From Heptranchias perlo (taxonomy: Eukaryota): a DNA stretch of 64,000 nt. Shown here piece by piece: positions 2,767 through 63,241 of the stretch. Every line of letters starts with the position of its first letter. The stretch's first letter is position 1. Below the pieces are notes generated by a model. It searched no databases and was not told the origin of the DNA. It saw only the letters and a list, made by a program, of their open reading frames with translations. The translations under genes and the position numbers were made by a program. The DNA lies in assembly GCF_035084215.1 (NCBI RefSeq), contig NC_090329.1, positions 108,190,001-108,254,000 on the forward strand, in the 5' to 3' direction.

Positions 2767-3177
2767 TTATACTTCACTATCTCAGGGTTGCCCTCCTAGG
2801 AGGCCACTCGCCGGTACCGACCCCGTCCCGGGGGGGGGGGGGGACCCCCTCTTCCCCTGCAAACATCAATACACTTCAAGCCCCCAGTCCTAACTTCCGA
2901 AAGAGAGTCAGCAACCCACAGGACAACATGAGCACTGCATTGTTATTCGGTTGCAGAACAAAGCGACAGGAGTTAAAGAGCCGGCGGGTGTGCACCAGCC
3001 CTGGAGACCCGGCGAAGCCCACGACTGAAACCCTCTGCGCCATCCGCTGCAGGGAGCCGCATTGTTACAGTCCCCCGTGGCTTGTGTGTGTGTGTGTGTG
3101 GAGAGAAACGGTGAGCCTGGGCGACCCGGAGCTCCCCATCGCCCAGATGGAAGGGCCGAGGGCTCGGCCTCACTTAC

Positions 3178-3216
3178 ACTGTCCAGCCGCTTGGCCTCGG
3201 GGTAGTCGTGAGCCAT
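3178..3216 (-). CDS. First coding exon of a host gene transcribed toward the window start (MAHDYPEAKRLDS, phase-0 donor); candidate prolyl endopeptidase (PREP-like) N-terminus
   Basis: ATG at 3216 (acgATGG) lies directly downstream of a CpG-island promoter. 13 codons are followed by a canonical GTAAGT donor (plus-strand acttac 3172-3177). The YPxxxR pattern resembles prolyl oligopeptidase N-termini, but 13 aa cannot fix identity. Confidence 0.5.
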
Positions 3217-3365
3217 CGTTACCGGTCACCGAGCCACCCGCGCCAGGCTCGCACCAACCGCCAGCCCGCCTCGCGCCCGCCGCCGGAAGTGCCCCCCCCT
3301 CCTCCTCCCCGCGCGCGCGCGCGCAGGCGCGGAAGTGAATCCGGGTCACGTGGGCGCGGGCATGA
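3217..3365. promoter_or_regulatory. CpG-island housekeeping-type promoter (ETS x2, NRF1-like site, E-box)
   Basis: CpG-rich non-repeat island at ~2790-3420. CCGGAAGTG at 3283-3291, GCGCAGGCGC at 3321-3330, CGGAAGTG at 3330-3337, GTCACGTG at 3345-3352. Confidence 0.8.
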
Positions 3366-3623
3366 GTTGGCATTGGCAACCTACCCGGAGGAAAGAGACC
3401 AACCGCCGAAGGCTATTCCACCAACCCCCCCTCCCCGGGATCAGGTTGACTCCTTCCCTCCCTCTCTCCCTCCATACTTTGCTGTCTTCCACTCAGCCCA
3501 TTCATCTCTGGAGTGAAGATCCTGCAGGGTTTCCCCCTCCCAAGAGATAAATCGTCCAAATCTCCCAGAACTTGTACCAGAGGTGGTCCAAACCCTGGAC
3601 CATAACCAGCCGCAGGCGGTTCA

Positions 3624-14475: not shown

Positions 14476-15985
14476 TACAAAGCATTACTATATTCCAACC
14501 ATCGGGGATCATTTTTTGAGACATCTATTCTTCTTTCAGTTGCTTCTGCCCGCACCATGTTATTGTACCAAATATATCACAATTTTATTCAACACACCTA
14601 CTGTGATCATACATGCCAAACAAAGCTTGTGCATGTGTGTGCGAGCATGGCCTTGTGACTCTCACACTGGCTCAACATCAAATACCAGCAGGAGGTGAGA
14701 TATTGGGTGTTTTAGATGGAGAAATGATCAGTTTTTAGTTGCAATGTAATTCATAGGAACAAGAGTAAGCCATTCGACCCCTTGACCCTGTTCCTCCATT
14801 CAATTAGATCATGGCTGATCTGTACCTCAACTCCATTTACTCGCCTTGTTAGAAAAAAATGAAATATTTTCTATATTATTGATTATCAACCTGTTCAGCT
14901 ATAAGTCAATACCTGTTGTATGATGATCAGAAATTTTCAAAGCAGTTTTTCTTTAACTTATTGATATTTGTACAAGTTATATCCATTTAATTTGAAGTTT
15001 GTTTTTAAGGGCAGCTAACACACCCAACATAATGTGAGTCGCAAGCACATCAATATAGATTGGAATTTCACTGAAAATGGAGCAGAAGCTGTTCCTATGA
15101 TAGGCCTCAGTGAACAAATGTAATTCAGCTGTTCATTTGACTGTGGCTGGGAAATTCCTTGGAGCTGCTCCCGCTCTGCCACCGTGACTTCGCTGCAAGT
15201 TACCCAGTTATTGCATGTAAACGGGGTTCCTGCCGTACTTCTGGTGATGTTTCTCAGTATCACTGAATTCATGGCGCCTCCCTGGCATTAGGCCTGAACA
15301 AATTTTTCTTTTCATATGTATGGAAATGTATCCCATGATACACAGAATATAAAGAAGTCAGCCTTGGCTCAGTGATAGCACTCTCACCTCTAAATTGGAA
15401 GGATGTGGATTGAAGCCCCATTCCAGAGACTTGAGCACATAATCTAGATTGGCACTTCAGTGCAGTACTGAGGGGGTGCTGCCTTTTGGATGAGCCGTTA
15501 AACTGAGACGCCGGGCCCGATTTTAGCACCCGCTATCGGGTGCGTTCTCGGTGGGGGGGGCCTCGAAAATCGTGAAATGCAGGACCCCGACCGGATCCCG
15601 CCTCGATCCCGCCCACTTCCGGGTTCCCCACTGACGCGCTGGCGTGCGCGCGCAGCCCCCGCTGGTGGGAATCCTGCAGGCAATTAAAGCCAGCGGGATG
15701 CCACTTGAGAGTATTTATTTAGCTATTTCAGGTCATTAACTGACCTGATTGAGCTGTTTTATTAAAAAGGGTGGGATTTTACCTTGAACTGAGACTGTTT
15801 CCCATACTGGGGTAAACACTCTGGGCCCGATTTTACCAGGGGTGCGGGTTGGCAGCGGGTGGTCGGGCGGGCTCGAGGAAAACGCGCCGGCCAAATTGAG
15901 TGCGTTGCGCACGCGATCGCGGGATGATTGATGTGATTAGCCGGCAGTTACGGGTTCCGCGCTTCTCAGCTGCGTGCCGGCGGCC

Positions 15986-16031
15986 TGCGCATGCGCATTG
16001 ACGTCTGAGCGATGGTTGCGCTCTATTTAAA
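15986..16031 (+). promoter_or_regulatory. Putative promoter of the inner Myb/SANT gene (NRF1 palindrome + TATA-like box)
   Basis: TGCGCATGCGCA at 15986-15997 and TATTTAAA at 16024-16031, ~50 bp before ATG 16081. Both are conserved in the outer copy (23743-23754, 23709-23716). Confidence 0.6.
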
Positions 16032-16080
16032 GGGGCAGTCCACCAAAGCCCCTCCAGCCACAAACTACACTCCATCAAGG

Positions 16081-17951
16081 ATGGAGGAGCACAGGGGTAA
16101 GGCTGCTCCCCGTTTCACGGACCACGCCCTCCAGGTGCTGCTGGACGGGGTCCGCATGAGGAGGGAGACGCTGTTCCCCACGGATGGAAGGAGGTGCCCT
16201 GCCAGCGCCACCAAGAGGGCATGGGAGGAGGTGGCCGCGGAGGTCACAAGCAGGGGAAACACCACCCGCACTTGGATTCAGTGCCGCAAGAGATTCAATG
16301 ACCTCACCAGGTCCGGAAAAGTGAGTACACTAACGCATTCTGCATCACTCCGTCTTCCACATCACCTCAAACACCTCACAACCCCATCTCCACTGACAGT
16401 ACTGCGCTCCCGCACCAATCCTCACAGCCACCCAACTATCATCCTCACAGTGCCTGCACGTACCCACCGTCCCTGTCCCCACTCGACCACTACCACACAC
16501 CCCAATGCCCATACAATGGGATGGCCATGTGGCACACGCATCCTCCCATCCATCTGGCACACGTTCAACCCAATCACACCAATGCTTGAAGCGTCTCACA
16601 TTGTAATCATCACTCAATAACGTTTTTGTGTTTTGCCCTCACAGGAGAAGAGGGCCAGGAACGCACGCGATAGGGCATGCACCGGAGGGGGCCCGCCACA
16701 CGAGGTGGCCCTGACAGACGCCGAGGTCGAGGCACTGGAGATCAGCCGCACGCTGCATTGCCTGTCGATGGCGGATGGCGAGTCTGGTTCTGGCGAAACG
16801 GCCGGTAAGGGAAAGCTGGCACTCATCACTCATGATCGTGAATGATCGTAGCATCACATGGCATATGCCGCACCGCCACATTTGGTCACATGCCTGATAT
16901 TTCCCTCTGTTCTCTTCCAGGACCGTCTGCGATCGACGTCTCGGTTGAGGGCGATTCCTCAGAGGACATGCCCGTCTCTGAGGGTGCATCGTCACACATG
17001 AGCCTTGCATCCACCAGCGCAGATACACACACCTCGGTGGGTCCCCCCCCTCAGCTAGTTGGGATTGCACATGGTGAGTCACCGCGCACACATGAGCATG
17101 AGCAGACCCTGGTGGCAGGGTCAGCCGCGGAGGGTCCGCGTCGGTGGGAGCACTCTTCTCCAGGCTTTGCTCAGCCGGACCCAGATGCTGAACCCAGGGG
17201 GCCACCTGTCAAAAGGAGAGTCGTCGAGGGGCACCAGAACATTGCTGAGGTACTGGGAGAGGTGCCACGCGCACTCTCCACAATCGCACGGAGGATGGAG
17301 GAGTCCAACTCCTGCATGAGGGGAATGGTGGCACAGGTGCAGGAGGGTATCGCCGAGATAGTGTCGCAGGGACGTGAAGGCATCTCTGAGATAGTGTCGC
17401 GGGTAGGTGTGGGAACGTCTGCGGTGGAGGACAGGCTAGCCTCCCTCGAGCGTCACGCACAGCTCACCAATGAGTCCATCCAGGCCCTCACAACGGCTGT
17501 TCGGATTCAGGGTGAACAACATTCTGCCGCCATCAACAGGTTGACAGATACATTGGAGGTGGCCTTGCAAGGTCTCACCCACGTCATCCAAACTGCCGTC
17601 CAGCAGGGTGGAAGGGGTGATGTGGGCCTTGGCCATGAGAGGGAAGATGGTGAACGGGGAAATGGAAGTGTGGACGCTACTCAAGGCGCCCCCAAGTCTC
17701 ACCCGTTGCCCCCCTCTCAACCAGTGCCCGCAATAGTCCATCCTCTCCAGGTGGCCGAGTCTGCCCCTGCACAGGTGCAGGAGGAGCAGTCTGTGGAGGT
17801 GCCCTCACGGGCACCGAAACCCAGGGGGCGTCGGCCCAAAGCATCTACCCGGTCAGGGCACGAACAGGAGCAACCTGCCACCACCTCTGCTGGAGCCACA
17901 GGGGTAGCACCACGTAGGGGGTCCCGAAAACGAACGCCTAAAGTTCCGTGA
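16081..17951 (+). CDS. Harbinger Myb/SANT-like DNA-binding protein, 3 exons (16081-16320, 16645-16804, 16921-17951), 476 aa
   Basis: Exon 1 encodes APRFTDHALQVLLDGV...AWEEVAAEV...RTWIQCRKRFNDL. Donors gtgagt (16321) and gtaagg (16805); acceptors cacag (16644) and ttccag (16920). 240+160+1031 nt stays in frame to TGA. AATAAA at 18021. Confidence 0.9.
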
Positions 17952-18248
17952 GCACACAGGGATTGCAACAGGGTGTTTGTCGTTTTTTTTTAATTTTCTA
18001 CTCTTTGAATGTCACCACAAAATAAACTCACTTTTTCTCACCAATGCTGCCACCTCTTGTCCATAATTCTGCGGCTTGTGCAATATATCCCTTCCCTGCG
18101 CCTCATCATGACGACGACCACCCCGTCCCACCCATTGAGCATAATCCAGTGGGTGCAGGTGTACAGGCACCACTCTTCTGTGGAGGGAGCCTGTATGGAC
18201 CCTCGTCTGTGCACGTTATGACATGTGAACGCCTCACACAGTGTGATG

Positions 18249-19484
18249 TTAGGAGAACCGTTGGCATATGAGTGCCTCCCTGGCCTGACGAGCACGCAGG
18301 TGAGCCGGTGTTCGGCGCATGGGTCGTTCCTCCTCCTCTCCCTCTTCCTCCTCCTCCTCTTCCTCCTCCACCTCCTCCTCATTGTCGTCCTCAATGTGGG
18401 TGGCGGGTGTGCATGGGGCCTCCTCCAGCGGCACCCCTCTCTGTAGTGCCATGTTATGCAGGGCACAGCAGACAACTATAATTCGTCCCACTCTGAATGG
18501 CGTGTATTGGAGCGCTCCCCCGGAACGATCAAGGCACCTGAAGCGCATCTTGAGCAGCCCTATAGCCTGCTCAATTGTAGACCTGGTAGCAATGTGGCTG
18601 TCATTATACCGACGCTGTGGCTCGGTAATGGGGTTCCTCAGAGGTGTCATAAGCCACGTGTGCAAGGGATATCCCTTGTCGCCGAGGAGCCAGCCGTTGC
18701 CGGCGTTGGGTGCGTGGAAGAGGGGCGGGACGGTGGACTCCCTGAGGACGAAGGCATCGTGGCAGCTGCCAGGGTATCTGGCGCACACGTGTAGGAATCT
18801 CTGGCGGTGGTCACAGATGAGCTGGGCGTTCATGGAGTGATACCCTTTCCTGTTGATAAACAGCCCTGGCTCATGTGGAGGTGCCCGTATTGCTATGTGG
18901 GTGCAATCGATTACACCCTGCACCCGTGGGAAGCCAGCCATGGCATGGAATCCAACCGCCCTCTCCGTCTGGCTGCGCTCATCCATGGCGAAGTTGATGT
19001 AGGTCGAGGCCCTGCGGAACAACCCATCGGTGACCTGCCTTATGCACTTGTGTGCAGACGACTGACAGACCCCGGTGATGTCCCCCGTGGCACCCTGGAA
19101 GGATCCGGAGGCGAAGAAGTTGAGGGCAGTGGTGACTTTGACGGCGACGGGTAAGAAGATGCTGCTTGGTCCATCCGGGAGCAGCTCGTCATTGAGGAGG
19201 CTGCAGATGTCGGCGACTACCTGGCGAGTGACTCTGAGCCTCCGTATGCACTGCTGCTCAGAGAGGTCCATGAAGCTGAGCCTCGGTCTGTAGACCCTGT
19301 GCGGAGGGTAGTGCCTCCTGCGACGCATCTCTCTCTGCGGATGCCCTCCATCCTGCTGTGCAGGTGGATGTGCCGCAGCACCGTGTTGTGGGGATGCATG
19401 TCTCTGAGGCGGACGGCGTGGACTGCGAGGCTGCTGAGGCTGGTCATCCTGTTCGTCCTCCGAGGATGTCAACGCAGCACCCAT
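18249..19484 (-). CDS. Harbinger DDE transposase (HARBI1-like nuclease), intact 411 aa
   Basis: VKVTTALNFFASGSFQ HTH region, GVIDCTH, NRKGYHSMNAQLICD, YPGSCHD, LLGDKGY, RSTIEQAIGLLKMRFRCL, CCALHN and an acidic tail. It lies inside TIRs, so it is a transposon gene rather than domesticated HARBI1. Confidence 0.95.
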   Translation of the reverse strand: MGAALTSSEDEQDDQPQQPRSPRRPPQRHASPQHGAAAHPPAQQDGGHPQREMRRRRHYPPHRVYRPRLSFMDLSEQQCIRRLRVTRQVVADICSLLNDELLPDGPSSIFLPVAVKVTTALNFFASGSFQGATGDITGVCQSSAHKCIRQVTDGLFRRASTYINFAMDERSQTERAVGFHAMAGFPRVQGVIDCTHIAIRAPPHEPGLFINRKGYHSMNAQLICDHRQRFLHVCARYPGSCHDAFVLRESTVPPLFHAPNAGNGWLLGDKGYPLHTWLMTPLRNPITEPQRRYNDSHIATRSTIEQAIGLLKMRFRCLDRSGGALQYTPFRVGRIIVVCCALHNMALQRGVPLEEAPCTPATHIEDDNEEEVEEEEEEEEEGEEEERPMRRTPAHLRARQAREALICQRFS

Positions 19485-20260
19485 CTGGCAGGTTTAGGTT
19501 TGCGGGGTTGTGAACGCTAGAAAAGTGTGTCCTCGCACAGGGGTTGGACTTCCACGCCGGTGAATCTTCTTGCTTGGAGGAGGGTGGTGGAGGGCAAGCG
19601 TTGCCCAATGTTACGGAGTGTCCTCCTGCGTTGGTGAAGGCTCTCCCCCCCCCCACCTGTGGAATGCACCTTGGCAGCTGCCACAGGCTGCTGGCTGCAA
19701 CACGTCCGTTGAGAGTGTGAGTGTTTCCCCCAGTATGGGAAACAGTCTCATTTCACTGTAAAATCCGACACCTGTTAAATAAACAGCTCAATCAGGTCAT
19801 TTAATGACCTGAAATACCAAGATAAATACACTCAAGTGGAACCCCGCTGGCTTTAATTGCCTGCGGGATTCCCACCAGCGGGGCCAACGCACGCACCCCC
19901 GCACGTCAGCGCGCAACCCGGAAGTGGGCGGGATCGAGGCGCGATCCGGTCCCGCTCCTCGAAACCGGGATTTTAGAGGCCCCCCCGCCGAGAACGCACC
20001 CGGAACCGGGTGCTAAAATCGGGCCCTCTCACTCCAAACGGACGTGTTGCAGCCAGCAGCCTGTGGCAGCTGGCAAGGTGCATTCCACAGGTTGGGGGGG
20101 AGAGCCTTCACCAACGCAGGAGGACACTCCGTAACATTGGGCAACGCCTGCCCTCCACCACCCTCCTCCAAGCAAGAAGATTCACTGACGTGGAACCGCA
20201 ACCCCGGTGCGAGGACACACTTACCTACCGTGCACAACCCCTCAGACCTACACCTGCCAG

Positions 20261-21487
20261 ATGGGGGCCGCCTTGACATCCTCGGAGGACGAACAGCATC
20301 ACCAGCCCCAGCAGCCTCGCAGTCCACGCCGTCCGCCTCAGAGACGTGGATCCCCACAACACGGTGCTGTGGCACATCCACCTGCACAGCAGGAGGGAGG
20401 GCAACCGCAGAGAGAGATGCGTCGCAGGAGGCACTACCCTCCGCACAGGGTCTACAGACCGAGGCTCAGCTTCATGGACCTCTCTGAGCAGCAGTGCATA
20501 CGGAGGCTCAGAGTCACTCGCCAGGTAGTCGCCGACATCTGCAGCCTCCTTAATGACGAGTTGCTCCCGGATGGACCAAGCAGCATCTTCTTACCCGTCG
20601 CCGTCAAAGTCACCACTGCCCTCAACTTCTTCGCCTCCGGATCCTTCCAGGGTGCCACCGGGGACATCACCGGGGTCTCTCAGTCGTCTGCACACAAGTG
20701 CATAAGGCAGGTCACCGATAGGTTGTTCCACAGGGCCTCGCACTACATCAGCTTCGCCATGGATGAGCGCAGCCAGATGGAGAGGGCGGTTGGATTCCAT
20801 GCTGTGGCTGGCTTCCCACGGATGCAGGGTGTAATCGATTGCACCCACATAGCAATGCGGGCACCTCCACATGAGCCAGGGCTGTTCATCAACAGGAAGG
20901 GGTATCACTCCATGAACGCCCAGCTCATTTGTGACCACCGCCAGAGATTCCGACACGTGTGCGCCAGATACCCTGGCAGCTGCCACGATGCCTTCGTCCT
21001 CAGGGAGTCCACCGTCCCGCCCCTCTTCCACGCACCCAACACCGGCAACGGCTGGCTCCTTGGCGACAAGGGATATCCCCTGCACACGTGGCTTATGACA
21101 CCTCTGAGGAACCCCATCACTGAGCCGCAGCATCGATATAATGACAGCCACATTGCTACCAGGTCTGCAATTGAGCAGGCTATAGGGCTGCTCAAGATGC
21201 GCTTCAGGTGCCTTGATTGTTCTGGGGGAGCGCTCCAATACACGCCACTCAGAGTGGGACGAATTATAGTTGTCTGCTGTGCCCTGCACAACATGGCACA
21301 ACAGAGAGGGGTTCCGCTGGAGGAGGCCCCATGCACACCCGCCACCCACATTGAGGACGACGATGAGCAGGAGGAGGAGGAGGAGGAGTACGAGCGAGAG
21401 GAGGAGGAATGACCCATGGGCCGAACACCGGCTCACCTGGATGCTCGTCAGGCCAGGGAGGCACTCATATGCCAACAGTTCTCCTAA
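20261..21487 (+). CDS. Harbinger DDE transposase of the outer copy; premature TGA at 21410-21412 removes the last 25 codons
   Basis: Same motifs as 18249-19484 (about 23 aa differences by eye before the acidic tail). CGA(Arg) has become TGA after the poly-Glu; the frame continues PMGRTPAHLDARQAREALICQQFS to TAA 21485-21487. Confidence 0.9.
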
Positions 21488-21788
21488 CATCACACTGTCT
21501 GAGGCGTTCACATCTCATCACGTGCACAGACGAGGGTCCATACCATCCCCCTCCACAGAAGAGTGGTGCCAGTACTCCTGCACCCACTGTATTATGCCCA
21601 ATGGGTGGGACCGGGTGTTCGTCGTCATGATGAGGCGCACGGAAGGGACCTATTGCACAAGCCGCTGAAGAATGGACAAGAGGTGGCAGCAGTGGTGAGA
21701 ACAATTGTGTTTATTGTTAATGTGCATTCAAGGACTAAAAATAAAAACCTAACAATTTGTCAGACACCCTGGTGCATTCCCTTTGTGT

Positions 21789-23659
21789 TCAAAAAACCTT
21801 TGCTTTACGTTTTCGGGAACCCCTACGTGGTGCTACCCCTGTGGCTCCAGCAGAGGTAGTGGCAGGTTGCTCCTGTTCGTGCCCTGACCGGGTAGATGCT
21901 TTGGGCCGACGCCCCCTGGGTTTCGGTGCCCGTGAGGGCACCTCCACAGACTGCTCCTCCTGCACCTGTGCAGGGACAGACTCGGCCACCTGGAGAGGAG
22001 GCACCATTGCGGGCACTGGTTGAGAGGGGGGCAACGGGTGAGACGTGGGGGCACCTTGAGTAGCGTCCCCACTTCCATGTCCCCGTTCACCATCTTCCCT
22101 CTCATGGCCTAGGCCCACATCACCCCTTCCACCCAGCTGGACGGCAGTTTGGATGACCTGTGTGAGACCTTGCAAGGCCACCTCCAATGTATCTGTCAAC
22201 CTGTTTATGGCGGCAGAATGTTGCTCACCCTGAATCCGAACAGCCGTTGTCAGGGCCTGCATGGACTCAATGTTGAGCTGTGCGTGACGCTCGAGGGAGG
22301 CTAGCCTGTCCTCCACCGCAGACATTCCCGCACCTACCCGCGACACTATCTCAGAGATGCCTTCACGTCCCTGCGACACTATCTCGGCGATACCCTCCTG
22401 TACCTGTGCCACCATTCCCCTCATGCAGGAGTAGGACTCCTCCATCCTCTGCGCGATTGTGGAGAGTGCTCGTGGCACCTCTCCCAGTACCTCGGCAATG
22501 TGCTGGTGCCCCTCAACAACTCTCCTTTTGACTGGTGGCCCCCTGGGTTCAGCATCTGGGTCCGGCTGAGCAAAGCCTGGAGAAGAATGCTCCCACCGAC
22601 GCGGACCCTCCGCGGCTGACCCTGCCACCAGGGTCTGCTCATGCTCACATGTGCGCGGTGACTCACCATGTGCAATCCCAACTAATTGAGGGGGGGGACC
22701 CACCGAGGTTTGTGCAGCTGCGCTGGTGGATGCTTGGCTCATATGTGACGATGCACCCTCAGAGACCGGCATGTCCTCTGAGGAATCGCCCTCAACGGAT
22801 ACGGCGCTCGCAGACGGCCCTGCAAGAGAACAGTGGGCAATATCAGGCATGTGGACAAATGTTGCGGTGCGGCAGATGCCAGGTGATGCTAAGATCATTC
22901 GCGATCATGAGTGCTGAGTGTCAGCTTTCCCTTACCGGACGTTTCTGCAGACCCAGCCTCGCCATCCGCCACGGACAAGCAATGTAGCGTGTGGCTAATC
23001 TCCAACGCGTCCACTTCGGCGTCCGTCAGAACCACCTGGTGTGGCGGGCCCCCTCCAGTACGTGCCCTTTCCCGGGCATTCTTGCATCTCTTCTCCTGTG
23101 AAGGCAAAACACCAATGCGTAATTGAGTGATGATTGCATTGTGAGACGCTTCAAGCATTGGTGTGGGTGGGTTGAGCGTGTGGCAGATGGATGGGATGAT
23201 GTGTGTGCCACATCCGCATCCCATTGTATGGGGATTGGGGTGTGTGGTAGTGTTCGAGTGGGGACAGGGACGGTGGGTACGTGCAGGCACAGTGAGGATG
23301 ATAGTTGAGTGGCTGTGAGGATTGTTGCGGGAGCGCTGTGGTGTCAGTGCAGAAGAGGTTGTGAGGTGTTTGAGGTGATGTGGAAGACGGAGTGTGGGAA
23401 AGTCCGTTAGTGTACTCACTTTCCCGGACCTGGTGAGGTCATTGAATCTCTTGCGACACTGGATCCAAGTTCTGGTGGTGTTGCCCCTGCTGCTGACCTC
23501 CGCCGCCACCTCCTCCCATGCCCTCTTGGTGGCGGAGCCAGGGCACCTCCTTCCGTCGCTGGGGAACAGCGTCTCCATCCTCCTCCTTACCCCGTCCAGC
23601 AGCAGCTGGAGTGCGTGGTCTGAGAATCGTGGGGCAGCCTTACCCCTGGGTTGCTCCAT
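21789..23659 (-). CDS. Harbinger Myb/SANT-like protein of the outer copy, 3 exons (23659-23420, 23095-22936, 22819-21789), 476 aa
   Basis: Exon sizes (240/160/1031) and GT-AG sites are identical to the inner copy; open through to the stop. Confidence 0.9.
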
Positions 23660-24699
23660 GTTGCGCTACCTCTTGTTTGCAGCTGGAGGGGCATTGGTGA
23701 ACTGCCCCTTTAAATAGAGCTCCACCATCGCTCAGACATCACTGCGCATGCGCAGGCCGCCGGCGCGCAGCTGAGAAGCGGAGAACCCGTAACGGCCGGG
23801 TAATTACCTCAATTATCCTGCGATCGCGCGCGGGACTCACTCAATTCACCGGCCGCGTTTTCCACGCGCCCGAAGGACCACCCGCCGAGAACCCGCACCC
23901 CTGGTAAAATCGGGCCCCCCATCTGCCTGTTCAGATGAATGTAAAAGATCCTATAACACCACTTGAAGAAGAGCAGGGAGTTTTCCATGTTTTGTGGCCA
24001 ACATTCATCCCTCGACTAACACTGCCAAAAACAGATTATGTGGTCATTTATCTTTGTGCTGTTTGTGGGACCTTGCTATGTGCAAATTAGCTGTTGTATT
24101 TGCCTGTATTACAACATTGACTACACTTCAAAAGTACTTCATTGGCTGTGAACTGCTGTAGGACGTACTAAGGATGTGGAAAGCGCTGTATAAATGAAAG
24201 TTTTTTTCTGACAATAATGCGTTACTCTGAAGAACCAGAAATGTTATTTATTACGGTAAATCTGGCGCAGCAGTTCTGGGGTGTGGCTTAATGCCCAATG
24301 CAATTGTCATTTTTGCAACCAGCAAATCCTGTGTGAAAGTTGGGGAAGAGGTCTGGAATCACAAGATAGGATCAGAAAAAGGTTAGGCCTCTGACAATAA
24401 TACAGTTTACATTATGCACTCAAGCCCATTCCCTTTCATTTTTCCCCCTACTTTCCCGATGATGCTGTTCCATAGGTGCCAGTATCCATCTGGTACTTAG
24501 CCCTAGTGGCTATTTTTCATGTGAACCTAGACTGAATTTCAGCAGGTTATTCAATTGTGAGGACATCATAACTAAGCTCTCATTTAACATCTATACATTT
24601 ACATTTTCCTTCAAAATGTGTTGCACGGTGATCAGGAGTCAATTGTAACTCATAACAACTTTATTTTAATAGTTAAAATATTTGTACCTCCTCATGATA

Positions 24700-25050
24700 A
24701 ACAGAGTAACATAGTAACAATTTCAGGCCGGAGAGGACATTAGGTCCATCTAACCCACCTATCCACAGTGTTCCCTTGGTGCATTTCTAATAATCCTGAA
24801 TCCTGTTTGTTGACAAAAACCTGCCTGGTCCCTTCTTGAAACCTTTTAAGGTTCCTTGTTCCACAACCTGTGCTGGTAATTTGTTTCACTTACTTACCAC
24901 CCTTTTAGTAAAAACGTTCCCCCTGCATTTCCTATTTTCTTTTGTTGTCCTTAATTTGTAAGTATAAGCCCTTGTGCTTAAATTTAGTAGACGGCAGAAA
25001 AGCTTACTTGGAGATCCAATTTGTCCAAACCTTTCGTAATTTTAAACATT
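24700..25050 (-). mobile_element. Old CR1 3' fragment
   Basis: Reverse complement gives degenerate RVVSKxNKLPAQVVE-like text and a CR1 tail (gatggacctaatgtcctctc...ttactatgttact). Confidence 0.55.
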
Positions 25051-29879: not shown

Positions 29880-30112
29880 GAAGAAGCAGTGCATGATGAG
29901 GCTTGGGTTCACAAAGGAGGCTGTGACTGACACGCCTCACCTGGGTCACAAAGACCTGCAAGGACAATCAACTCTCCACACTGCACTATCATTAGCAGTA
30001 AAAGTCACCGCTGCTCTGTAACATTTATGCCACTGGATCCTTCCAGTTACCCACCGGGGGTATCACAGGAGTCAGTCACCTTTCCATGCACCACTCTATT
30101 GAGGAGGTAACT
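29880..30112 (+). pseudogene. Ancient Harbinger transposase N-terminal relic
   Basis: Translates across frameshifts as QCMMRLGFTKEAVTD...ALSLAVKVTAAL...YATGSFQLPTGGITGVSHLSMHHSIEEVT, colinear with the transposases at 18-21 kb and 61 kb. Confidence 0.75.
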
Positions 30113-30429
30113 ACTAAAGTTTGTCTAAATTGTTGGCTTCCCTGAGATACAGGTCATCAATGGCTGTACACAGATAGGCCCCAAAATTCCTCAGGGTTCC
30201 ACTGGTCCTCTGGCAGAAGACTGGCAGTCAGCAGACCCCTGCCAAAAATACAGCAGAGACCCGCCAGGATTGTAAGGGATGGAGCCTCCATCTGCTCCTT
30301 AAAAGGCAAATGACAGCCAGGGGTGGGAACTCGTGCCCAACTGCATTTTCAGTGTAACTACATGACATAGGCCTGTATGCAAGATTGTTTTGGAGCTGGC
30401 ATGTATGGATATGGTACTCATTTAACATG

Positions 30430-39057: not shown

Positions 39058-39927
39058 GGGCATGATTTTAGCCTGGGGGCAGAGTGGAACTCCTGTCGGG
39101 AAATCTGGAAGTATGGCTTTCCTGGATGTCCTTATGAGTTTGACGTAAGGATGTCGTTTTTTTCTTTTTTGCCGGTTTCCAGCCCGACAGGCCGGCCTGA
39201 TTGACAGGCTGGCTCTCAGTCGGACGGGAGAAGAGCCAGGAAGAGGACGTGTTCAGGTAAGTGTTAGATGGGGGGCCATTGTGGGGGGGTGGGGTCGGAT
39301 GTCATGGGGGGTCGGGGTCACGGGGGTTGGGGGTCACCGGGCAGTTAGTCATGGGGGGGGGGTCAGTCATCGGGAGGTCAAGGGTCACTGGGAGGATCAC
39401 TCATCTGGGGGCTGTCAGTCATCGGGTGGGGGGGGTCAGGGTCGGAGGTCATCATGGGGTCGGGGGTTATCGCTGGGTTGGCGATGGTGGAGGGTCAGAG
39501 ATCGTGGTGGGGGGTCGGAGATCATAGTGGGGGGTTCGGAGATTGTGGGTGGGGTTGGAGATCATGGGGGGAGGTTTCGGATACCATGGGGGTGGGCGCT
39601 GCAGGTAGGCTTGTTGGGCCTGGGGGAAGCACTCCTGCTCCTCTGGGCCCACAAGCAGTGCTATAAAGGCACTTACCTGCAGTTTCGGGTCTTCTTGCCT
39701 CCTTTCACGCGGCGTGAAGGAGAAGGCCCGGGGATCAGAAAAGCTTTGAAAATGGAGGCCCGCCACCTCCTTAACAGCTTTCACTGACTGACCCGCCTCC
39801 TAAGAACGGGTTAGTCACCCGCTCCACCTCCCCTCCCCCCCCACCCCGTGAAAGTGGGTTTTAGATTTTTGCAATTGTTACTGCCCTGCCCCCAACCCAC
39901 CCGTTTTTCCAGGCTAAAATCATGCCC
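39058..39927. mobile_element. Non-autonomous Harbinger element, TSD CTG
   Basis: 19-bp perfect TIR GGGCATGATTTTAGCCTGG / CCAGGCTAAAATCATGCCC. CTG at 39055-39057 and 39928-39930. G-rich degenerate repeats inside. Confidence 0.88.
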
Positions 39928-42403: not shown

Positions 42404-42956
42404 GGCCTAGAAATTCAATGGTGCCATGCCATGGCTTTAAACCTGCACCTAAGTCTCCAATATGGTGGGCAGGAAGCATGCGCTCATTACGAGCTGGAAG
42501 TGATCTGCACGCCATATTGTTGTATGCAAAAGTATAGGCCTCTAGGGACGACCCCTGAAACAAATATTAGGCCCTTTCCTTTTGCAAATAAGGGCACTCC
42601 GTCCCAATGTCCCAATCACCTCCCCTTCCCGGTCGCCCAATCAACCCTCACCTGATTTGCAGCCTCACCCACCCCCCACCCCTCCGATTGCCCTCCCTTT
42701 CCCAGTCATCCCCCTCCCAATTTCATCTCCTTCTCCTATAACAACTTACCTGACAGCTGCTGCTAGCAACAGCAATGGCCTGAAATTCGAAGCCTCTTCA
42801 CCGGTGAGCTTCTTGGGGACACCGAGCTGGTGTCCACAGCTCACTGGTCTCATTTAAATGAGGCCCAATATCAGGGCGGCCTCAGGCTGCAGGCACAGGG
42901 AATGTTCCTTGTGCCCAGTTTGCATCGGCCGGCTTGCGGGAATGAATTTCTAGGCC
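42404..42956. mobile_element. Non-autonomous Harbinger-type element, TSD ATG
   Basis: 14-bp perfect TIR GGCCTAGAAATTCA / TGAATTTCTAGGCC. ATG at 42401-42403 and 42957-42959. Confidence 0.8.
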
Positions 42957-47546: not shown

Positions 47547-49010
47547 ACATCGGGACCTGACTGCCATTTTAACTGGTGGCACTCGGAACAGGTGAGAAAT
47601 CGGCTGGCTAGGTTTAAATGAGGCCCGTGAGTTAAAATAGCCTGGGATATTAACTCAGGGATATTAAGGCTAATTGTGACACCTCTACAACTGCTCAGCT
47701 ATCAGTTAACACAGCATAGAAAAAAAAGTGAACCTTGAACCTTCCTGGTCTGTGTGGCTCAGCTGAGTACTGATCAATTGGGAAGCTCTTAATTAATCTT
47801 TGATGCACATGCCAGCAATTTCTATTCGTGTCTCATAGCTCTGTCATGCATCACTTGCCACCATTTGGTAATTTTTACTTGAGTCACATTAAAACTAGTG
47901 AATTAATCTTTCCACAAGAATCTATTTCCTCGTCAACAATGATAAAAACAAAAATAATGTACATTTATATAGTGTCCTCAATGAAGAACATGAACACTGA
48001 GCAGCATTTGGGAGATTTAGGTGAGGTGACTAAAAGTGTGGTAAAATAAATAGGTTTTCAGTAGGCTTTTAAAGGTCAGGAGCAAGATAGCAAAGCAGAG
48101 GAGTTTAGGAAGGGAGATGTAGAGAGTAGACCCGAGTCATTTCAAGCCCAAGTTTTGCTCATTGAAAGAACAAAATGGTGCTTGACCTGGCCCAGGTTAT
48201 TGAGAAGTGCAAAGGCATACCAAGTATGGCAATGTGGCAATGTTACATCACTATAATATAATCTATTATGTAGACATTCCTGCTTTTAAAAACAGACTTC
48301 TGATTCTCTCCAGCTTAATTCCAGAGTAGAAACATCCTTAATTGTGGCCTTTTTTGTTGCCTTTGTTTATTTTTAAAATTTAGTTTGAATTCCAAAGCTT
48401 TGATTGCTACCGAAATTTATCTGTTCGCAGGAAATATGAGTCTGAGTTGAATATGGAAGGAAAACAGCAAAAGTTCTGAATCAGTGAAGTTTTGGACTCC
48501 CATTGTGGTGGGATACTGAAGGAGCTTGATTCAGAAACAGTGGCCTTTTATTTCTGGGTAGTAACATGCATGACAAATTTGATGCCCCACTTTATTAATA
48601 TCCTCAATGTATTGTCTATGGGCTTAGGTCAGAGATTTCAGACTGTAATGTTAACGACCTGATAAAACATCGTAACAATTCCATGATTTCCATACTTGGT
48701 TTGTTATCATTTGTGAGATTGACCAGCTAGCGCGATCCATTAAGGGACTTGGAACAGGTTGCTCTGGCGTGGGATTCTTCCCACTCGGCTTCAGATAACC
48801 CTGCAAACCAAAGCCCTAACATGTTGTGTTCACTGGCATGGTTTTAGCTAGTTAAACTTCAGCAGTACCCCTGTGCACACTCGGCTCGTCACCATGTACC
48901 TAAGCTGTCTAGATTTAGGTATGATGTGGAGATGCCGGTGATGGACTGGGGTGGACAAATGTAAGGAATCTTACAACACCAGGTTATAGTCCAACAGTTT
49001 TATTTGAAAA

Positions 49011-49047
49011 TCACAAGCTTTCGGAGCTTACCTCCTTCGTCAGGTGA
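49011..49047 (-). ncRNA. Minimal type I hammerhead ribozyme motif (minus-strand copy)
   Basis: Reverse complement is UCAC-CUGACGA-A-GGAG(guaag)CUCC-GAAA-GC-UU-GUGA. Confidence 0.75.
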
Positions 49048-49141
49048 GTGAGTGAAAGGTTCTAAAATCACATAGCATATATTAGGCTAGATCGTCTCCC
49101 AGCCTAATATATACTATGCGATTTTAGAACCTTTCACTCAC

Positions 49142-49178
49142 TCACCTGACGAAGGAGGTAAGCTCCGAAAGCTTGTGA
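49142..49178 (+). ncRNA. Minimal type I hammerhead ribozyme motif (plus-strand copy)
   Basis: Stem I UCAC/GUGA, core CUGACGA (49146-49152), stem II GGAG/CUCC, GAAA (49167-49170), palindromic AAGCUU helix III. Predicted cleavage after 49174. Confidence 0.75.
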
Positions 49179-51269
49179 TTTTCAAATAAAACTGTTGGAC
49201 TATAACCTGGTGTAGTAAGATTCCTTACATTAGATTTAGGTAAGCGGAAGGTGTCCCTATGAAGGGAACATGTGCAATCTGTCTTGTGCAAACAGGAACC
49301 CTACCTATGTGAATTTCCGGGTAGCATTTCTCCAAGGGTTCTGCCAATCCTCTGCCAAAATTATGGCAGTAGATCATTAGCAACCACTGGAAATTCAAGG
49401 GACAGGAGTACAATCTCAAAATGTGCTAACAGCATAAAAGAAAGCGGTTTGGTATACCGTGAGAAGAACTAGAAAAAAAACAGGAGGATGTAGAGAGGTT
49501 AGTGGAATAAGCAGAGAGGTGGCTGATGCAATTTAATGTAGAAACCAAGAAATTTAAGATAGAAACTAACCAAACTTAGAGAGGATAAGACTTCGAGTCT
49601 GGATGGATTGCATCTGTGCATACTAAAAGGAGCTAGGGAAGAGATAGCAGAGGCCTGGAATGCTTTCCACAGGGAGTGGTTGAGACAGAGATCATTGCAT
49701 CTTTTAAGGGAAACATGGATAAATATTACAAGCATAGGAAGATACAGAACTATAGGGAGAGAGCAGGACAGACACAATGGCCTTCTTATATCCTGTAAAT
49801 TTTTATAGTTCTATGGACATTTTAGAGGTTGTGTAATTATGGTCTGGGACATAAAAGATACCAAGCCACTATTTGAAAAAGATCAGGGAGTTCTCCCCAT
49901 ATCCTGGAAACCATTCATCCCTTAACCATCATCATCAAAAAATATTATCTGATTATTTATCTCATTTGCTATTTGTGGGATTTTACTGTGCATAAATTGG
50001 CTGCAGCACTTGCCTACATAATAACAGTGACTGTATTTCGAAAGTAATTTGCTGACAGTGAGGTTCTTTGGGACTCCCTGAGATCATGAGAAGCGCTATA
50101 ACAATGCAAATTCATTCTTGTTAATCCTAGATTTGTCCCTTTGCTTGCTTGAAGTAGTAATTCCCCATCACATAGTCCCCTAATGCTGAGAGGAGGCAGG
50201 AAGGCTGGACATGGGCATTCTCTCATCAGCTGATGTGACTGATTGTTCCTCTTAATGTCTCAGCGAGTAAATGCTGAGGTTCTTAGGCTACAAGGTCCCA
50301 GGTTCAATTTCAGGTTTGTGCTGAGTTAGCTGATCTCAGCCAGGGCAGGAATCTGTGTATTTAGGAGATAAGGAAAAAACTAGAGGAGGGGGAAGGCCTA
50401 GCAGAACTGAAAATTGGTAAGAGGAAAAATTGACTGTATCAGTTTCCATCCTCGCCCATTTTGAGTTGGAGTCACCCACCATAAAGGGGTACCTTGGAAT
50501 TTAACTCGTCGCCATCTAATTGGGTACAAGGAGCTCCAATAGATGTTGTCCTGTCTCACTCACTGCTTAGTTCATTGTTTACAAGAAGGTTATACAACAA
50601 TGAAGTATACCACAACTGAGGAAGTCTGTTAGAGCATGAGCAAGGAGCCATGTTTCCTCCCCCAGTTTTATCTCCTCCTCTTCTGAATTTGGTGACTTAT
50701 GCTGGAATATGGTTAATGTGGACACTGGGCACCATCCGGTACCTCACCTAAGTGGCCATTTGTCATATGTGAAGTCTGACGGTGACTGCCGGCAACCTAT
50801 TTGACCGTATGGGAGTATCGCAGCAAGTCTGATACGGTCCTTGCCAAACATCAACATGCGCACTTTCCAGCAAAATCACTGGATATCAGTTAAAAGCGGG
50901 AATCAAGGCTAATTTCTCCCTTTCTAACCCAGGGAACAACTGCAGCACCCGTACAGCCATGCCAACCTGGGAAAGACCCAGCTTTGACCCCTGGTCAGTG
51001 CTGAATTAGCTGATTGCAGTAGAGCTATTACAGTTGGACTCAATATCTAGCCATTTCCTATTAAGGCTCAAGTATGAGGAATTGCCAGTTGGGCAGTTAT
51101 CAGAGAGCATCATGCACCCAGGGTCAACACCTTCAGGAAAAGAGTAGAGAAAGTTCAAAAAATAAAATGTGAAAAATTAACTGTATTCTCTAAAAACAAA
51201 ACTAGATATGCTAATAAAACAAGCAATAATGAACGTCTGGCAGTGAGTCTACAGCAGTAATTCAGCTTC

Positions 51270-58364: not shown

Positions 58365-58576
58365 ATCCCAATAATTCTGCCTGTCTGTCCTTTTCACCCT
58401 GAATATCTGATTACAGGTATGGTATTGACCAACCTCATATAAATTGACAGAAATGAATTTTTTCCTGCCACATTAAAAAATTTGCATTTATACAATGCCT
58501 TTCACAACCTTACCTCTTAAAGATGCAGGTGCACGTTTCAAATGGCAGGTACACAGTTTACTTGGAGAAGGGAAAG

Positions 58577-60420
58577 ATGGCCAGGAGGATAGTAGGACTG
58601 GCACGAGAGAGGGCTCCACACTTCTCCAATGATGCTCTGGAGGCCCTGGTGGAAGGTGTGGACGAAAGGACGGCCAACATGTACCCGCAGGGAGGCTGGA
58701 GACCCTCCAGACTGCAGATCTGCAGGCATTGGCAGGCTACGGTGCAGGAAGTCAATGCCAGGAGCATTGCACCACGCACGTGGTCAAGGTGAGTGAATGC
58801 AAGTGTCAAATGGTACATCCTACCAACTGCACCACTGCTCCACTGCTCCATGCATCACACTCCCTGTCACCCACCCACCAACAAACACTGCCCATCCATA
58901 CGCAATGCTGCACTCGGTGTGCTGCATCTCACCCGCACATAGTACCATACTTGCAGGCCACACAACCACCACTCACAAGTCACGCAAACTGGCAGCTATT
59001 TGACCATGACAGGCACATCACTCACACACCTTGCAGGAGACTCACTGACACACTGTCCTCTGTCTTGCAGGTGAAGGTGGCGCATAACAGCTGGCAGCAG
59101 GAGGGACCTGAGGGTGGACGGGCACGTTTACACATCCTCACCCCCCTAGGGGAGACAGTGCTTAGGATCATTGGGAGGGCCATCACAGCAGCCATCACAA
59201 CACGCCGCGCTGGAAGTCCCGGTCAAGGGGCTCTCTGCATATCTAATGCTCCTTCTCCTTTTCCACATCTCCCTCTTCCCATAATCTTTTCTGACTCACG
59301 TGCTGCAGATGCTGTCAGCACACACCTCTTACTTGCTCTTCTCCCCACTCCACAACTCAACCTGTTTCCCATCGTCATTGCAGATACCCAAGAATACGTG
59401 GCGGCACCGTCCGAGGAAGAGGAGGGAGACACTGAAGCCACACCATCACTCGATCTGACTCTTGCTTCCACCAACACAGAGACTGACACTGCGAACTTTA
59501 GAGGTTAGGTTAGAGGAGGGATCTGCACGTGGTGAGACACCGGCACAAGTGCACAGGAGCCGGGGCGGGGGGAACAGATACCACAGGTGCCAGCTTGCCG
59601 GAGGGAGAGGTCGCTCACTAGTTCTGCTGCAGAGGAATCAGATGAGGACTTCGATGGACCAGGCTACAGAAGACGGCTGATGGGCGTACACCACCAAATG
59701 CTTGGGGCACTGGAAAACCTGCCAGAAAGCCTGTGCACAATGAGAAGGGGCATGGAGGAGTCCAGCCCCAAATTGGCCCAGGGCTTTGCGCAGAGCTTGG
59801 AGTCCATCCTTTCCCACATGGAACGGGTGGTCACCTCCATCAGTGCACCTGTGGAACCCACCATGATTCAGCGTCTGATGACTGATGTCACAGTTTCCAT
59901 TGCAGCACAAACATCTGCCATCCAAGGTCTGACTGATGCATTTGGAGCTCAGACGGGGGCCTTGGAAGCTCAGATTGCTGCTATTGTGGGTCTGGGGACC
60001 ACTGTGGAATGGGGCTTCCAGGGCGTCACAGCACTCCAGCAATCCGTTCTCCAGCTGATCACCAGGATTGCTGAGGCGCCGCCCCGGGAGAGTGGCAGTG
60101 GCACCATGGCAGTCGGACCTGCTGTCCTCTCTCAGGACGACAGCCTTCCTGCTCCAACCCCTGCCACTCCACCAGTGCCCCTGCTGCCTCTCGGCCAGCC
60201 AGGCCAGGCTGCTGCAGCCCATGATGCGGTCTGAAGCCGGGCCCTCCAGGCCCAGAGCTACTCAAGGTCGTCTTCCAAGGCTATCTGCATGCTCCTCCAT
60301 TGAAGGTCAGCAGCCTTCCACCACCCATGCTCAGCAACTGGGGAAGCACCTCATAGGAGCACTAGGATAGGTAAAGGCACACGGACACAGGCACTAAGGG
60401 AATGCACAAGGGTGAATAGT
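58577..60420 (+). pseudogene. Harbinger Myb/SANT gene relic (exon 1 58577-58788, exon 2 from 59071, exon 3 from 59384)
   Basis: RERAPHFSNDALEALVEGV...WQATVQEVNARSIAPRTW, but the QCRKRFNDL helix is deleted. The exon-3 region has RRGMEESS, like RRMEESN of the intact copies. Frameshifts present. Confidence 0.75.
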
Positions 60421-60616
60421 TCTGTTATGTTTGCATAATTTCATTTCTTCATTGATAAATGAGACTTTGATTTTGAATTTGTTGGTGGTTTTTATTTATG
60501 CAATGAGCTGAGAGGGACACCAATCTGTAATCAGATGGAGGGCGATTTGATCGTCTTGTGGGAGCGGAAAGGTGGGGAGTGTAAGACTGTTGGTGAGTTG
60601 GGGGATGTAGTTCACA

Positions 60617-61842
60617 TTATTGATAGCGGGCACAGATCAGGCGAGCACGCAGAGCCTTTGCAGACAAGACGTGTGGTTCCTGTTGCACCCTTGCGTCTTC
60701 CACCACTTCCTCTTCCGGTTCCACCCCCTCCTCCTCCTCCTCAGCCTCTTCCTCCTCCTGTTCCTCTGCCTCTTCCTCCTCAGCCTCCTCCTCATCCACC
60801 TCTGGCTCAGGGTCTTCTCCAATCATTGGTTGCAAAGACTGGTCCATCATGATGGCAAGGTTTTGCAGCATGCAGCAGACCACCACAAATCTGCCTACCC
60901 ACTCAGGGGAGTACTGCAGGGCTCCTCCAGACCGGTCCAGGCAGCAGAAGCATTGTTTGAGGAGACCTATGGTGTGCTCTACAATGTTGCGTTTGACAGC
61001 ATGGCTCTCATTATAGGCCCGCTGTGCACGTGTGCATGGGTTCCTGACCAGTGTCATAAGCCATGGCGTGAGGGGATAGCCCTTGTTGCCCACTAGCCAG
61101 CCTTTGACTTGCCGAGTTGGGTGAAAGAAAGCTGGCACGTTGGACTGCCGCATGACGAAGGCGTCATGACTGCTCCCAGGGTAGCGGGCATCGACCTCCA
61201 TGATTCGATGCGTGTGGTCGCACACCAGCTACACTTTGAGGGAGTGGAAGCCCGTTCGGTTGACGAAGACGGCTGAGTTGATGTGCGGGGAACGCAGGGC
61301 AATATGCGTGCAGTCAATGGCACCCTTCACCATGGGAAGCCAGCAATGCGGGCGAACCCCCGTGCTTGCTCGTTCTGCTTGTCTTTTTCAAGAGGAAAGG
61401 TGATGAACCTGTTCCTCATCTGGTACAGTGTGTCTGTGACCTCCCTTATGCAGCAGTGCATTGCATACTGTGAGATGTTGCACTTGTCGCCAGCAGAGGC
61501 CTGAAATGCTCCTGAGCCTTAGAAATTCAGTGCCACGGTGACCTTCACAGCCACAAGCAATGCTGTCCTCGCCCTGCTCTGAGGCTGCAGTTGTGGCTGC
61601 ACCAGTTGACAGATCTCGGTCACGGCTTCCTTGGTGAACCTCAGGTGTCGGATGCAATCCTCCTTGGTCACGTTGAGGTCAGAGAATTGATCTCTGAAGG
61701 CCATCACTGGGTAGGGCCTCCTGCTCAGTGCCCTGTGCCTCCTCGTCCTCCGTCTCCCGACAGCTTGACCTGCTATGCGTGGTCTCTCTGCATGTTCCCA
61801 GTCATGCTCAATGCCCAGCGGGAGCCCTAGCAGACCGCCCAT
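60617..61842 (-). pseudogene. Harbinger DDE transposase pseudogene
   Basis: ORF pieces 61519..61842 (LRFTKEAVTEIC, VAVKVTVALNF, then stop) and 60617..61225 (YPGSSHD, GNKGY with the catalytic D changed to N, RNIVEHTIGLLKQCF). Confidence 0.88.
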
Positions 61843-63241
61843 GGTTGGCAGGTATGTTGTTCAACCACGGTTGTAACTTTCCGACCCGTAAGGCAGTACC
61901 TGCCAAAGCACTCTCAAAAGTAGTGTAGGGACTCTCAGTAAGAAGAGGGAGCTTCAAAAAACACTTCCTACTCCACCAGCAGCCAGAAGCAATAATCCAG
62001 CAACTAATCTGCAACACTTACATGGCCCTTTAAATAGCTCTGGTGGGGGGGTCCTACAAGCACTATAAGACATGTTCAGATGGTCGGGGTTAAGACTGTG
62101 CGTTGAGTTGAGTGTTAAGGTCAAAAATAGTGTATCACTTTAAATCAGCGTTGCACATTGATTGCGCGCATTTTCTCCCTACTTTACACGCTTCCAGCAT
62201 TCCGTATTTGCACATGCGCTAATCCCTATACCAAGATGGCGTCCGGTGCACATCGCACTGGAAAAGTGCGTGCACATCCAAATCGCCATCTTGGATGTCA
62301 GAGAGGACATGTAGCGCTGAAACAACGGGCGCTACACGGCCCAATTTAATGCCCATAGTTTGTTACAACAGAGAACATGTAGCAGTATATGTTCCATAAC
62401 ACCGTATAAAATTTAAAGCTGCATTGCCTTTCTAACACACAAAAAAAGAAAGAACTTGTCTTTATATCACACTTTCTTCATCCACAAGTCACGCCTAAGT
62501 GCTTCACAGCCAACAAAGTAAGTTTTAGATTTTGTGAATTTGGTAATGTAAGGAAACAATTTGCTTATAAGCAAGGTCCTACAAACAGCAATGAGGTAAA
62601 TGACCAAATAATCTGTTTTTTTAAAGAGTTGTTGATTGAGGAATAAACGTTGGGTAAGGACAACTTGCCTGTCCTTCATCAAATAATGCCATCTGATCCT
62701 TTATGTCCACCTGAGAGGGTATAGTGTCATGATTTAGCATCTCATCTGAAAGACTCTCTCAGTAGTGCACTGCAGCGCCAGCCTAGATTATACGCTCAAC
62801 TCTCAGGATTGTGTCTTGCCCGAGGCACCAGTGAGCCAAAGTTAACACCTAATATGCTGTCATCATGTGCCTTTCAATAGGGGGAAGGTCATAAATGCTT
62901 TCATCGACATGTTTGATTATATAAGTCTGGCTAGTAACTAGTTGTAGCTTAGTTGGTCAGTGCACTGTGCAGCTTGGTACACCAGGAGGATCCGAAGTCT
63001 GTGCTGAGTTAGCTGATATAATTTTGAATGATAGTAGAGGTATTATAGTTGACCTCAGCAACTCTGCAATAGGGAAGAGAAGATCAGCCCGGTTTCCTGT
63101 ACCTAATTGCCATCCAGTAATCCCTGAAGGAAAGTCCATATACTTGGACATCTTAGACAACAACGTGCATTTATATAATGCCTTTACAGGAAAACAGCCC
63201 CAAGGCATTTACAGCAGGATTGGGACCAGTTTTTTTTTGTA

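Follow-up and report, generated by a model that had tools for sequence, protein, structure and literature searches.

An apparently complete two-gene Harbinger transposon inserted into an older sibling copy in the shark Heptranchias perlo

A stretch of 64,000 nucleotides from the shark Heptranchias perlo (NCBI RefSeq assembly GCF_035084215.1, contig NC_090329.1, positions 108,190,001 to 108,254,000 of the forward strand; hereafter the window, whose own numbering is used throughout) contains at 15823..20026 a DNA transposon of 4204 bp, element A (no strand assigned). Element A is very probably a structurally complete, autonomous-type member of the PIF/Harbinger superfamily from a young shark-lineage subfamily, which inserted by cut-and-paste and in inverted orientation into an older, disabled copy of the same family, copy B. 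An earlier note on this DNA had described a two-gene autonomous Harbinger here, and a DDE_Tnp_4 transposase, a Myb gene, terminal inverted repeats (TIRs) and a target site duplication (TSD) of 3 bp are all present. The same note had proposed that the copy may work as it stands. The complete anatomy, the splice model and the existence of near-identical copies bear out the first part of this reading; for the second, open frames are weak evidence, and several private-looking letters count against it. That A's own proteins would mobilise a reporter in cell culture is conceivable but doubtful, and that its subfamily still moves in the host seems to us a little less likely again; A is a reasonable, fair candidate for an assay of a native vertebrate Harbinger.

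The two TIRs of A (left, 15823..15838, +; right, 20011..20026, -) agree at 13 of 13 positions at the tip and at 15 of 16, declining to 18 of 30 further inward. They are short and perfect at the tip only, and fall below the 25-50 bp usual for Harbinger TIRs (PMC9179366). TCT stands on either side (15820..15822 and 20027..20029, both +), and the chance of a 13-bp TIR with a 3-bp TSD at fixed ends is ~2e-10. Together with a gap-free empty site, these features bear out the perfect TIRs and TSD of the earlier note and agree with the 3-bp duplication of PIF/Harbinger elements. The motif GATTTT(A/C) occurs once in the left end and three times in the right end, in A and B alike, including two extra subterminal copies of GATTTTA (19759-19765 and 19969-19975, no strand assigned) that B also carries. 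None is found in 3,404 interior bases, and this restriction to the ends makes it a candidate binding motif; GATTTTA may be the site recognised by the Myb protein. The left target flank of A, AAACAC, equals the left arm of AAACACCWGGTCTTT, the target consensus of the zebrafish element Harbinger3_DR. Of the 64,000 positions in the window 80 adjoin such a half-site, as do 4 of the 4,198 in B, and the 15-bp target palindrome preferred by vertebrate elements scores 8/15 for A and 7/15 for B, values reached by 4.5% and 12% of window sites, respectively. A target preference for AAACAC is a post hoc hint taken from two insertions.

Subtracting A and one TCT from the surrounding DNA leaves copy B, whose alignment with A (91.1%) runs ungapped across the insertion point, indicating that A inserted into B. 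The first piece of B (15513..15822, -) is its right end, 85% identical to the right end of A, and the main piece (20030..23917, -) is inverted with respect to A and 91% identical to it. B in turn splits a dispersed short interspersed element (SINE), whose 5' part lies at 15357..15512 (+) and whose 3' part lies at 23918..24205 (+); we take this SINE to be SacSINE1/Deu-like, as a candidate label only. The order of insertion is SINE, then B, then A, and neither the nesting of A in a full-length sibling nor that of B in the SINE appears in the earlier note. The bases flanking B are GCC and CCC (2 of 3 matching), and among seven SINE copies aligned at this site two have a 3-base gap, the others having gaps of 1-5 bases or no cover, so that the TSD of B is weakly supported. 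The transposase of B (20261..21412, +) is cut short by a TGA at codon 384, a CpG change that removes the C-terminal ARxxRxxLI helix present in the family alignment, while its three-exon Myb gene (21789..23659, -) retains an open frame of 476 aa and intact splice sites. The outer ends of B (15513-23917) still match at 15 of 16 positions, so that mobilisation of the 8.4-kb composite of A and B in trans is possible in principle.

The two genes of A are convergent. Poly(A)-type signals lie between them at 17989..18026 (no strand assigned), AATAAA for the Myb gene at 18021 (+) and ATTAAA for the transposase gene at 17989-17994 (-), so that the 3' ends of the two transcripts would overlap. Promoter-like motifs precede the Myb gene at 15987..16031 (+), namely NRF1-like (15987), CRE-like (15999) and TATA-like (16024) sequences. 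The promoter motifs and AATAAA of the earlier note are therefore present as sequences; their names, including the poly(A) type, are those we presume to apply, and their function is putative. An Rfam scan of positions 14500-25000 gave no matches.

The Myb/SANT gene consists of three exons on the forward strand. Exon 1 (16081..16320; 80 codons) encodes a Myb_DNA-bind_5 domain (PF13873, E=1.1e-10) and is followed by a GT-AG intron of 324 nt (16321..16644), exon 2 (16645..16804), a second GT-AG intron of 116 nt (16805..16920) and exon 3 (16921..17951). Joined, the exons encode 476 aa without an internal stop. Exon 3 specifies a low-complexity linker, a hydrophobic region with heptad-like spacing (judged by eye, with no Pfam match) and a basic C-terminal tail, which is a candidate nuclear localisation signal. 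The spliceable 476-aa gene proposed in the earlier note gains support both from shark homologs and from the pattern of divergence. Both predicted junctions are used in the H. perlo models P0122 and P0123 and the second also in P0121, all three being database-predicted models. Mismatches between A and B in exons 1 and 2 are distributed over the codon positions as 14/12/35 (p=3e-4), and those in intron 1 as 14/11/8 (p=0.44). We also considered intron 1 as coding sequence, since its 324 nt are open in B and the TAA of A at 16618 would then be a lesion; the even codon-position pattern and the agreement of the homologs' junctions with splicing rule this out.

A search with Myb exon 3 returned eight matches, all from H. 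perlo. P0121 is identical to the Myb protein of A at 375 of 376 positions, reads Met at a codon that is GTG in A, and is probably another copy rather than A itself. An 11-residue tandem duplication in exon 3 (17324-17390) is found in A and B and is lacking in nine other aligned relatives. In P0128, a CDK2-like H. perlo model, the last ~100 residues derive from Myb exon 3 of this family (76%), a possible exonisation or annotation error. The Myb proteins of a sister subfamily, P0124, P0129 and P0130, are 99.4-100% identical and P0131 is 95% identical; they lie on different chromosome-sized contigs, and their sequences point to a second young burst.

The transposase gene (18249..19484, -) encodes 411 aa that match Pfam DDE_Tnp_4 (PF13359) with E=1.3e-36. 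The motifs IDCTH, GDKGY and IEQAIG, which the earlier note had read as the catalytic D, D and E of an intact transposase, supply D193, D269 and E305, the commonest residues at these positions among homologs, and the protein also has the conserved C-terminal ARxxRxxLI helix. Of the 80 columns with a conservation of 80% or more among the homologs (120 examined), A retains 79; its only departure is M72, which it has in common with B, and B departs at two. A model of the transposase core has a predicted local distance difference test score (pLDDT) of 91.8 and a predicted template modelling score of 0.90. The top 33 of the 50 fold matches listed for it are all DDE transposases or integrases, the best being piggyBac (Z 9.9, root-mean-square deviation 5.2, 227 residues aligned), and the predicted structure is that of an RNase-H DDE fold. 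A Foldseek search with the full-length model returned nothing at E 0.001 or better, and a PDB sequence search with the family profile matched no solved structure (best E 0.96). The closest relatives of the transposase are shark and ray proteins named 'putative nuclease HARBI1' (62-76% identity in the top rows); among 31 matches to shorter relatives the best is 69% identical and none is near-identical to A. The exact proteins of A and B are absent from the protein collection searched.

Comparison of A with B is indicative of purifying selection on both genes. The ratio of nonsynonymous to synonymous substitution rates (dN/dS) is 0.27 for the Myb gene (p=2e-11) and 0.49 for the transposase gene as a whole, or 0.35 for codons 1-354 (p=9e-4), and transversions (229) outnumber transitions (146). 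Because dN/dS is low and transversions exceed transitions, the sequences point to the divergence of two active lineages under selection, rather than to decay in place. The divergence is uneven: Myb exons 1-2 differ at 35 of 133 third positions (26%), the transposase gene at 21 of 354 (6%; p=4e-9). This mosaic (16081-16804 against 18249-19484) suggests recombination or exchange between subfamilies.

A tree of 44 rows, comprising A, B and 42 matches picked by hand from the transposase searches, places A and B within a clade of H. perlo sequences (100/99) that is itself nested among elasmobranchs, and nothing in these sequences points to horizontal transfer of A. Three groups of shark and ray 'HARBI1' proteins (P0014/P0019/P0034/P0055, P0002/P0004 and P0017/P0020) are conserved across distant species on short branches, with identities of 89%, 84% and 80% in the pairs compared and the third acidic residue lost in P0002/P0004. 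These appear to be additional cases in which elasmobranchs have domesticated a Harbinger transposase.

The element was matched in eleven public runs, four of which were examined (X3, a DNA run, and X5, X6 and X9), with contig details taken from the longest 32 of 37,140 pieces. X3 yielded 34,888 matching contigs, 4,717 of them at 99% identity or more. A 111-nt contig identical to A has a depth of 2,899 in this run, compared with 7.7-26 for six low-depth contigs, and the residual depth of A-type letters is 2,602 at 16400 and 2,736 at 18138. If the low-depth contigs represent single loci, the copies sharing the sequence of A number roughly 100-400, and from this number we take the subfamily to be young. 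Near-identical copies, which the earlier note had advised looking for, thus exist both in this run and in P0121. All seven pieces listed from X5 that fall within A (1,248 nt) are free of differences. X9, labelled organism B, has only 26 contigs, some at 99.5-100% and with a depth of ~3, and its profile tracks that of X3; as contamination and true sharing are indistinguishable here, we make no claim of horizontal transfer from it.

Several observations weigh against A as a complete element of a young subfamily. Its TSD, TCT, is neither TWA nor CWG, and the flanks of B are GCC/CCC (n=2); TWA (CWG in Harbinger3_DR) is typical as a tendency and is not obligatory. C140 of the transposase is rare, Cys being found in 4 of 113 homologs and Ser in 90 of 113 and in B, and the pLDDT of the first full-length model drops below 50 over a stretch that contains D269 (residues 253-278). 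The X6 pieces differ more, all eight of those listed together carrying 25 differences, or 11 in 1,359 nt once the clearly foreign record 22 is set aside. At 18087, 19399 and 19513 (3 of the 33 listed places, drawn from 40 of 250 rows, with contigs dropping rare variants), all of the listed depth carries the letter of B, and the change at 19399 gives A's transposase H29 instead of R. These three letters look private to A, and could be an inheritance from a small parent lineage. The copy number, too, depends on the assumption that low-depth contigs are single loci. We think it rather unlikely that the subfamily can still transpose as it naturally occurs, with near-identical copies in the hundreds, a TSD core that is relaxed and a preference for the AAACAC half-site in common with Harbinger3_DR.

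Two accounts of the present state of A have to be set against each other. The mutation rate of the epaulette shark is 7e-10 per base per generation (PMC10587355), at which three changes in 4,204 bp correspond to ~1e6 generations (5e5-5e6 over the published interval); with so slow a rate, near-identity is no proof of recent insertion. Likewise, both frames and all splice sites would survive with probability 0.91, 0.61 and 0.38 at divergences of 0.1, 0.5 and 1% (substitutions only), so that intactness is expected in many copies and does not prove present activity. A could be active now, with germline expression and new insertions still arising, as its complete anatomy, the absence of any difference from a high-depth path over 1,248 nt in X5, the A-type letters at depth ~2,600-2,900 in X3, the P0121 model elsewhere and the near-identity of the sister subfamily's Myb proteins across chromosomes would lead one to think; the private-looking letters, with their ~1e6 generations, and the open frames expected by chance at such divergence speak against it, and we regard it as improbable, if seriously to be entertained. 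Approaching an even chance, without quite reaching it, is the alternative that A survives only as a defunct remnant of a burst at least 1 million generations ago, its frames kept open by slow shark mutation and its function lost through missense changes or silencing. The private-looking letters, transversions among them, the residues C140 and H29, and the survival odds given above all fit such a relic. It is countered by catalytic and invariant columns that are unchanged save for M72, common to B, by the position of H29 in the low-confidence N-terminus of the model, by the possible origin of the private-looking letters in a small parent lineage, and by an observed/expected CpG ratio of 0.67 in A versus 0.33 in its flanks, which implies little decay.

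Two further explanations concern what A is rather than whether it moves. Its relatives are named 'putative nuclease HARBI1' and its genes show purifying selection, as would those of a host gene pair domesticated in the manner of HARBI1/NAIF1. Such genes are single-copy, lack TIRs and TSDs and are orthologous across species; A has TIRs and a TSD, is inserted in another repeat with a second copy adjoining, matches tens of thousands of contigs, and groups with lineage-specific copies rather than with the clades conserved across species, which makes domestication the most improbable of the readings. Scarcely more probable is an assembly artefact (a fold-back chimera) or an inverted segmental duplication. 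A and B do lie as the arms of a long inverted repeat, 304 nt apart, and no contig among the longest 32 of 37,140 pieces bridges an A/B junction, yet the two arms are 9% divergent, with differences that follow the codon structure, and the breakpoints fall exactly at the TIRs with a 3-bp duplication, and a fold-back artefact is therefore unlikely. The insertion of a complete A into B by cut-and-paste remains the reading we prefer.

If A does transpose, Harbinger3_DR and the rice Ping/Pong system suggest how. The spliced Myb/SANT protein would bind the terminal and subterminal motifs, for which GATTTTA is the candidate, and by the same analogy would bind the transposase and carry it into the nucleus, perhaps by means of its basic C-terminal tail. 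The RNase-H-fold transposase, with D193, D269 and E305, would then excise A and insert it by cuts staggered by 3 nt, from which the TCT duplication results; B would probably be restored exactly once A is excised. No run holding the element is recorded as RNA. In X5 and X6, which are merely guessed to be RNA, none of the predicted splice junctions is found among 15 of 37 joints listed, and six listed contigs run unspliced over exon-intron borders. A joint in X5 between 15818 and 20026 has the form of an empty site, and we set it aside as proof of insertion polymorphism, its depth of 80.6 being that of a multi-copy rather than a locus-specific sequence.

The window holds further repeats. A Harbinger-like miniature inverted-repeat transposable element (MITE) at 39058-39927 has TIRs matching at 16 of 16 positions and a TSD of CTG (a CWG), and carries GATTTTA as A does; a second Harbinger-like MITE at 42404-42956 has TIRs matching at 15 of 16 and a TSD of ATG. 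An older, frameshifted Harbinger of another family lies at ~58570-61900 in the same convergent layout (Myb +, transposase -), with 42-55% amino-acid identity to A; its ends were not found. Short degraded transposase fragments occur at 29881-30191 (jointly E=3e-9) and a near-perfect hairpin of ~270 bp, with arms of ~130 bp, at 48960-49230. A CpG-rich promoter-like stretch at ~3000-3400 is possibly the start of a host gene, and contains motifs that we take to be ETS- and E-box-like.

The mechanism of vertebrate Harbingers rests on one reconstructed zebrafish element. A native pair of open reading frames (ORFs) with matching ends would make it possible to test directly how two proteins achieve transposition, how targets are chosen and how excision is made precise, and might become a tool. 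Native competence, if true, would mean a vertebrate Harbinger moving without reconstruction and a DNA transposon still alive in a vertebrate lineage that is among the slowest to mutate; an inactive A would mean that old transposons go on looking intact in sharks because mutation there is slow. No Harbinger was found in the elephant shark in PMC9179366, and other cartilaginous fish are called for in the same text; a Harbinger that is abundant and young in a shark answers this gap. Judged by titles, and mostly among open papers, literature searches brought up no account of the family of A and no native vertebrate Harbinger shown to transpose, with the proviso that one survey of 130 transposons may include native Harbingers. 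A is apparently a new and undescribed shark member of a known superfamily, and its family could be on record under a name in Repbase or Dfam.

Published work already includes intact vertebrate Harbingers, as well as DNA transposons that are active in native form in vertebrates. Among the latter are fish elements of other superfamilies, namely Tol1, Tol2 and Passport (PMC3016246), and also ZB and Passer; a natural PIF/Harbinger insertion has been caught in a nematode (PMC13668399), and PMC5499810, PMC11304231 and PMC8151067 provide background on the subject. LatiHarb1, which makes up 9.3% of the coelacanth genome (PMC3787270), and the recent Harbinger burst of the newt Pleurodeles waltl (PMC5741667) are large vertebrate expansions in other hosts, likened to A by description. 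Harbinger-Snek of sea kraits (PMC8437027) resembles the family of A in being recent, high-copy and represented by intact two-ORF copies (269 in Laticauda colubrina and 1 in L. laticaudata), with possible continuing activity. Snek arrived by horizontal transfer and has RNA reads on both ORFs, whereas A is placed by the 44-row tree among sequences from sharks and is known here from sequence alone. The conserved host genes HARBI1, NAIF1 and MSANTD (PMC9392472, PMC9710019) share PF13359 and PF13873 with A, which differs from them in its TIRs, its TSD and its relatives, which number in the hundreds.

The mechanistic comparisons are with two systems. In the transposition studied in zebrafish and rice, the Myb protein attaches both to the element's ends and to the transposase, which it brings into the nucleus, both proteins are needed, excision is usually precise and 3 bp are duplicated (PMC2836001, PMC9710019). 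Rice Ping/Pong-mPing shares the need for two proteins, the 3-bp TSD and an extended target preference (PMC2836001) and is the model for precise excision; it differs from A in its plant host, its TWA target and its demonstrated activity. Zebrafish Harbinger3_DR (Sinzelle et al. 2008, as cited in PMC2836001, PMC3016246 and PMC9710019) has two genes, TIRs and a 3-bp TSD, and A likewise combines a DDE transposase and a Myb-like gene with TIRs and a 3-bp TSD. In contrast to Harbinger3_DR, A is a native copy rather than a reconstruction, with TCT instead of CWG as its TSD and a match of 8/15 to the target palindrome.

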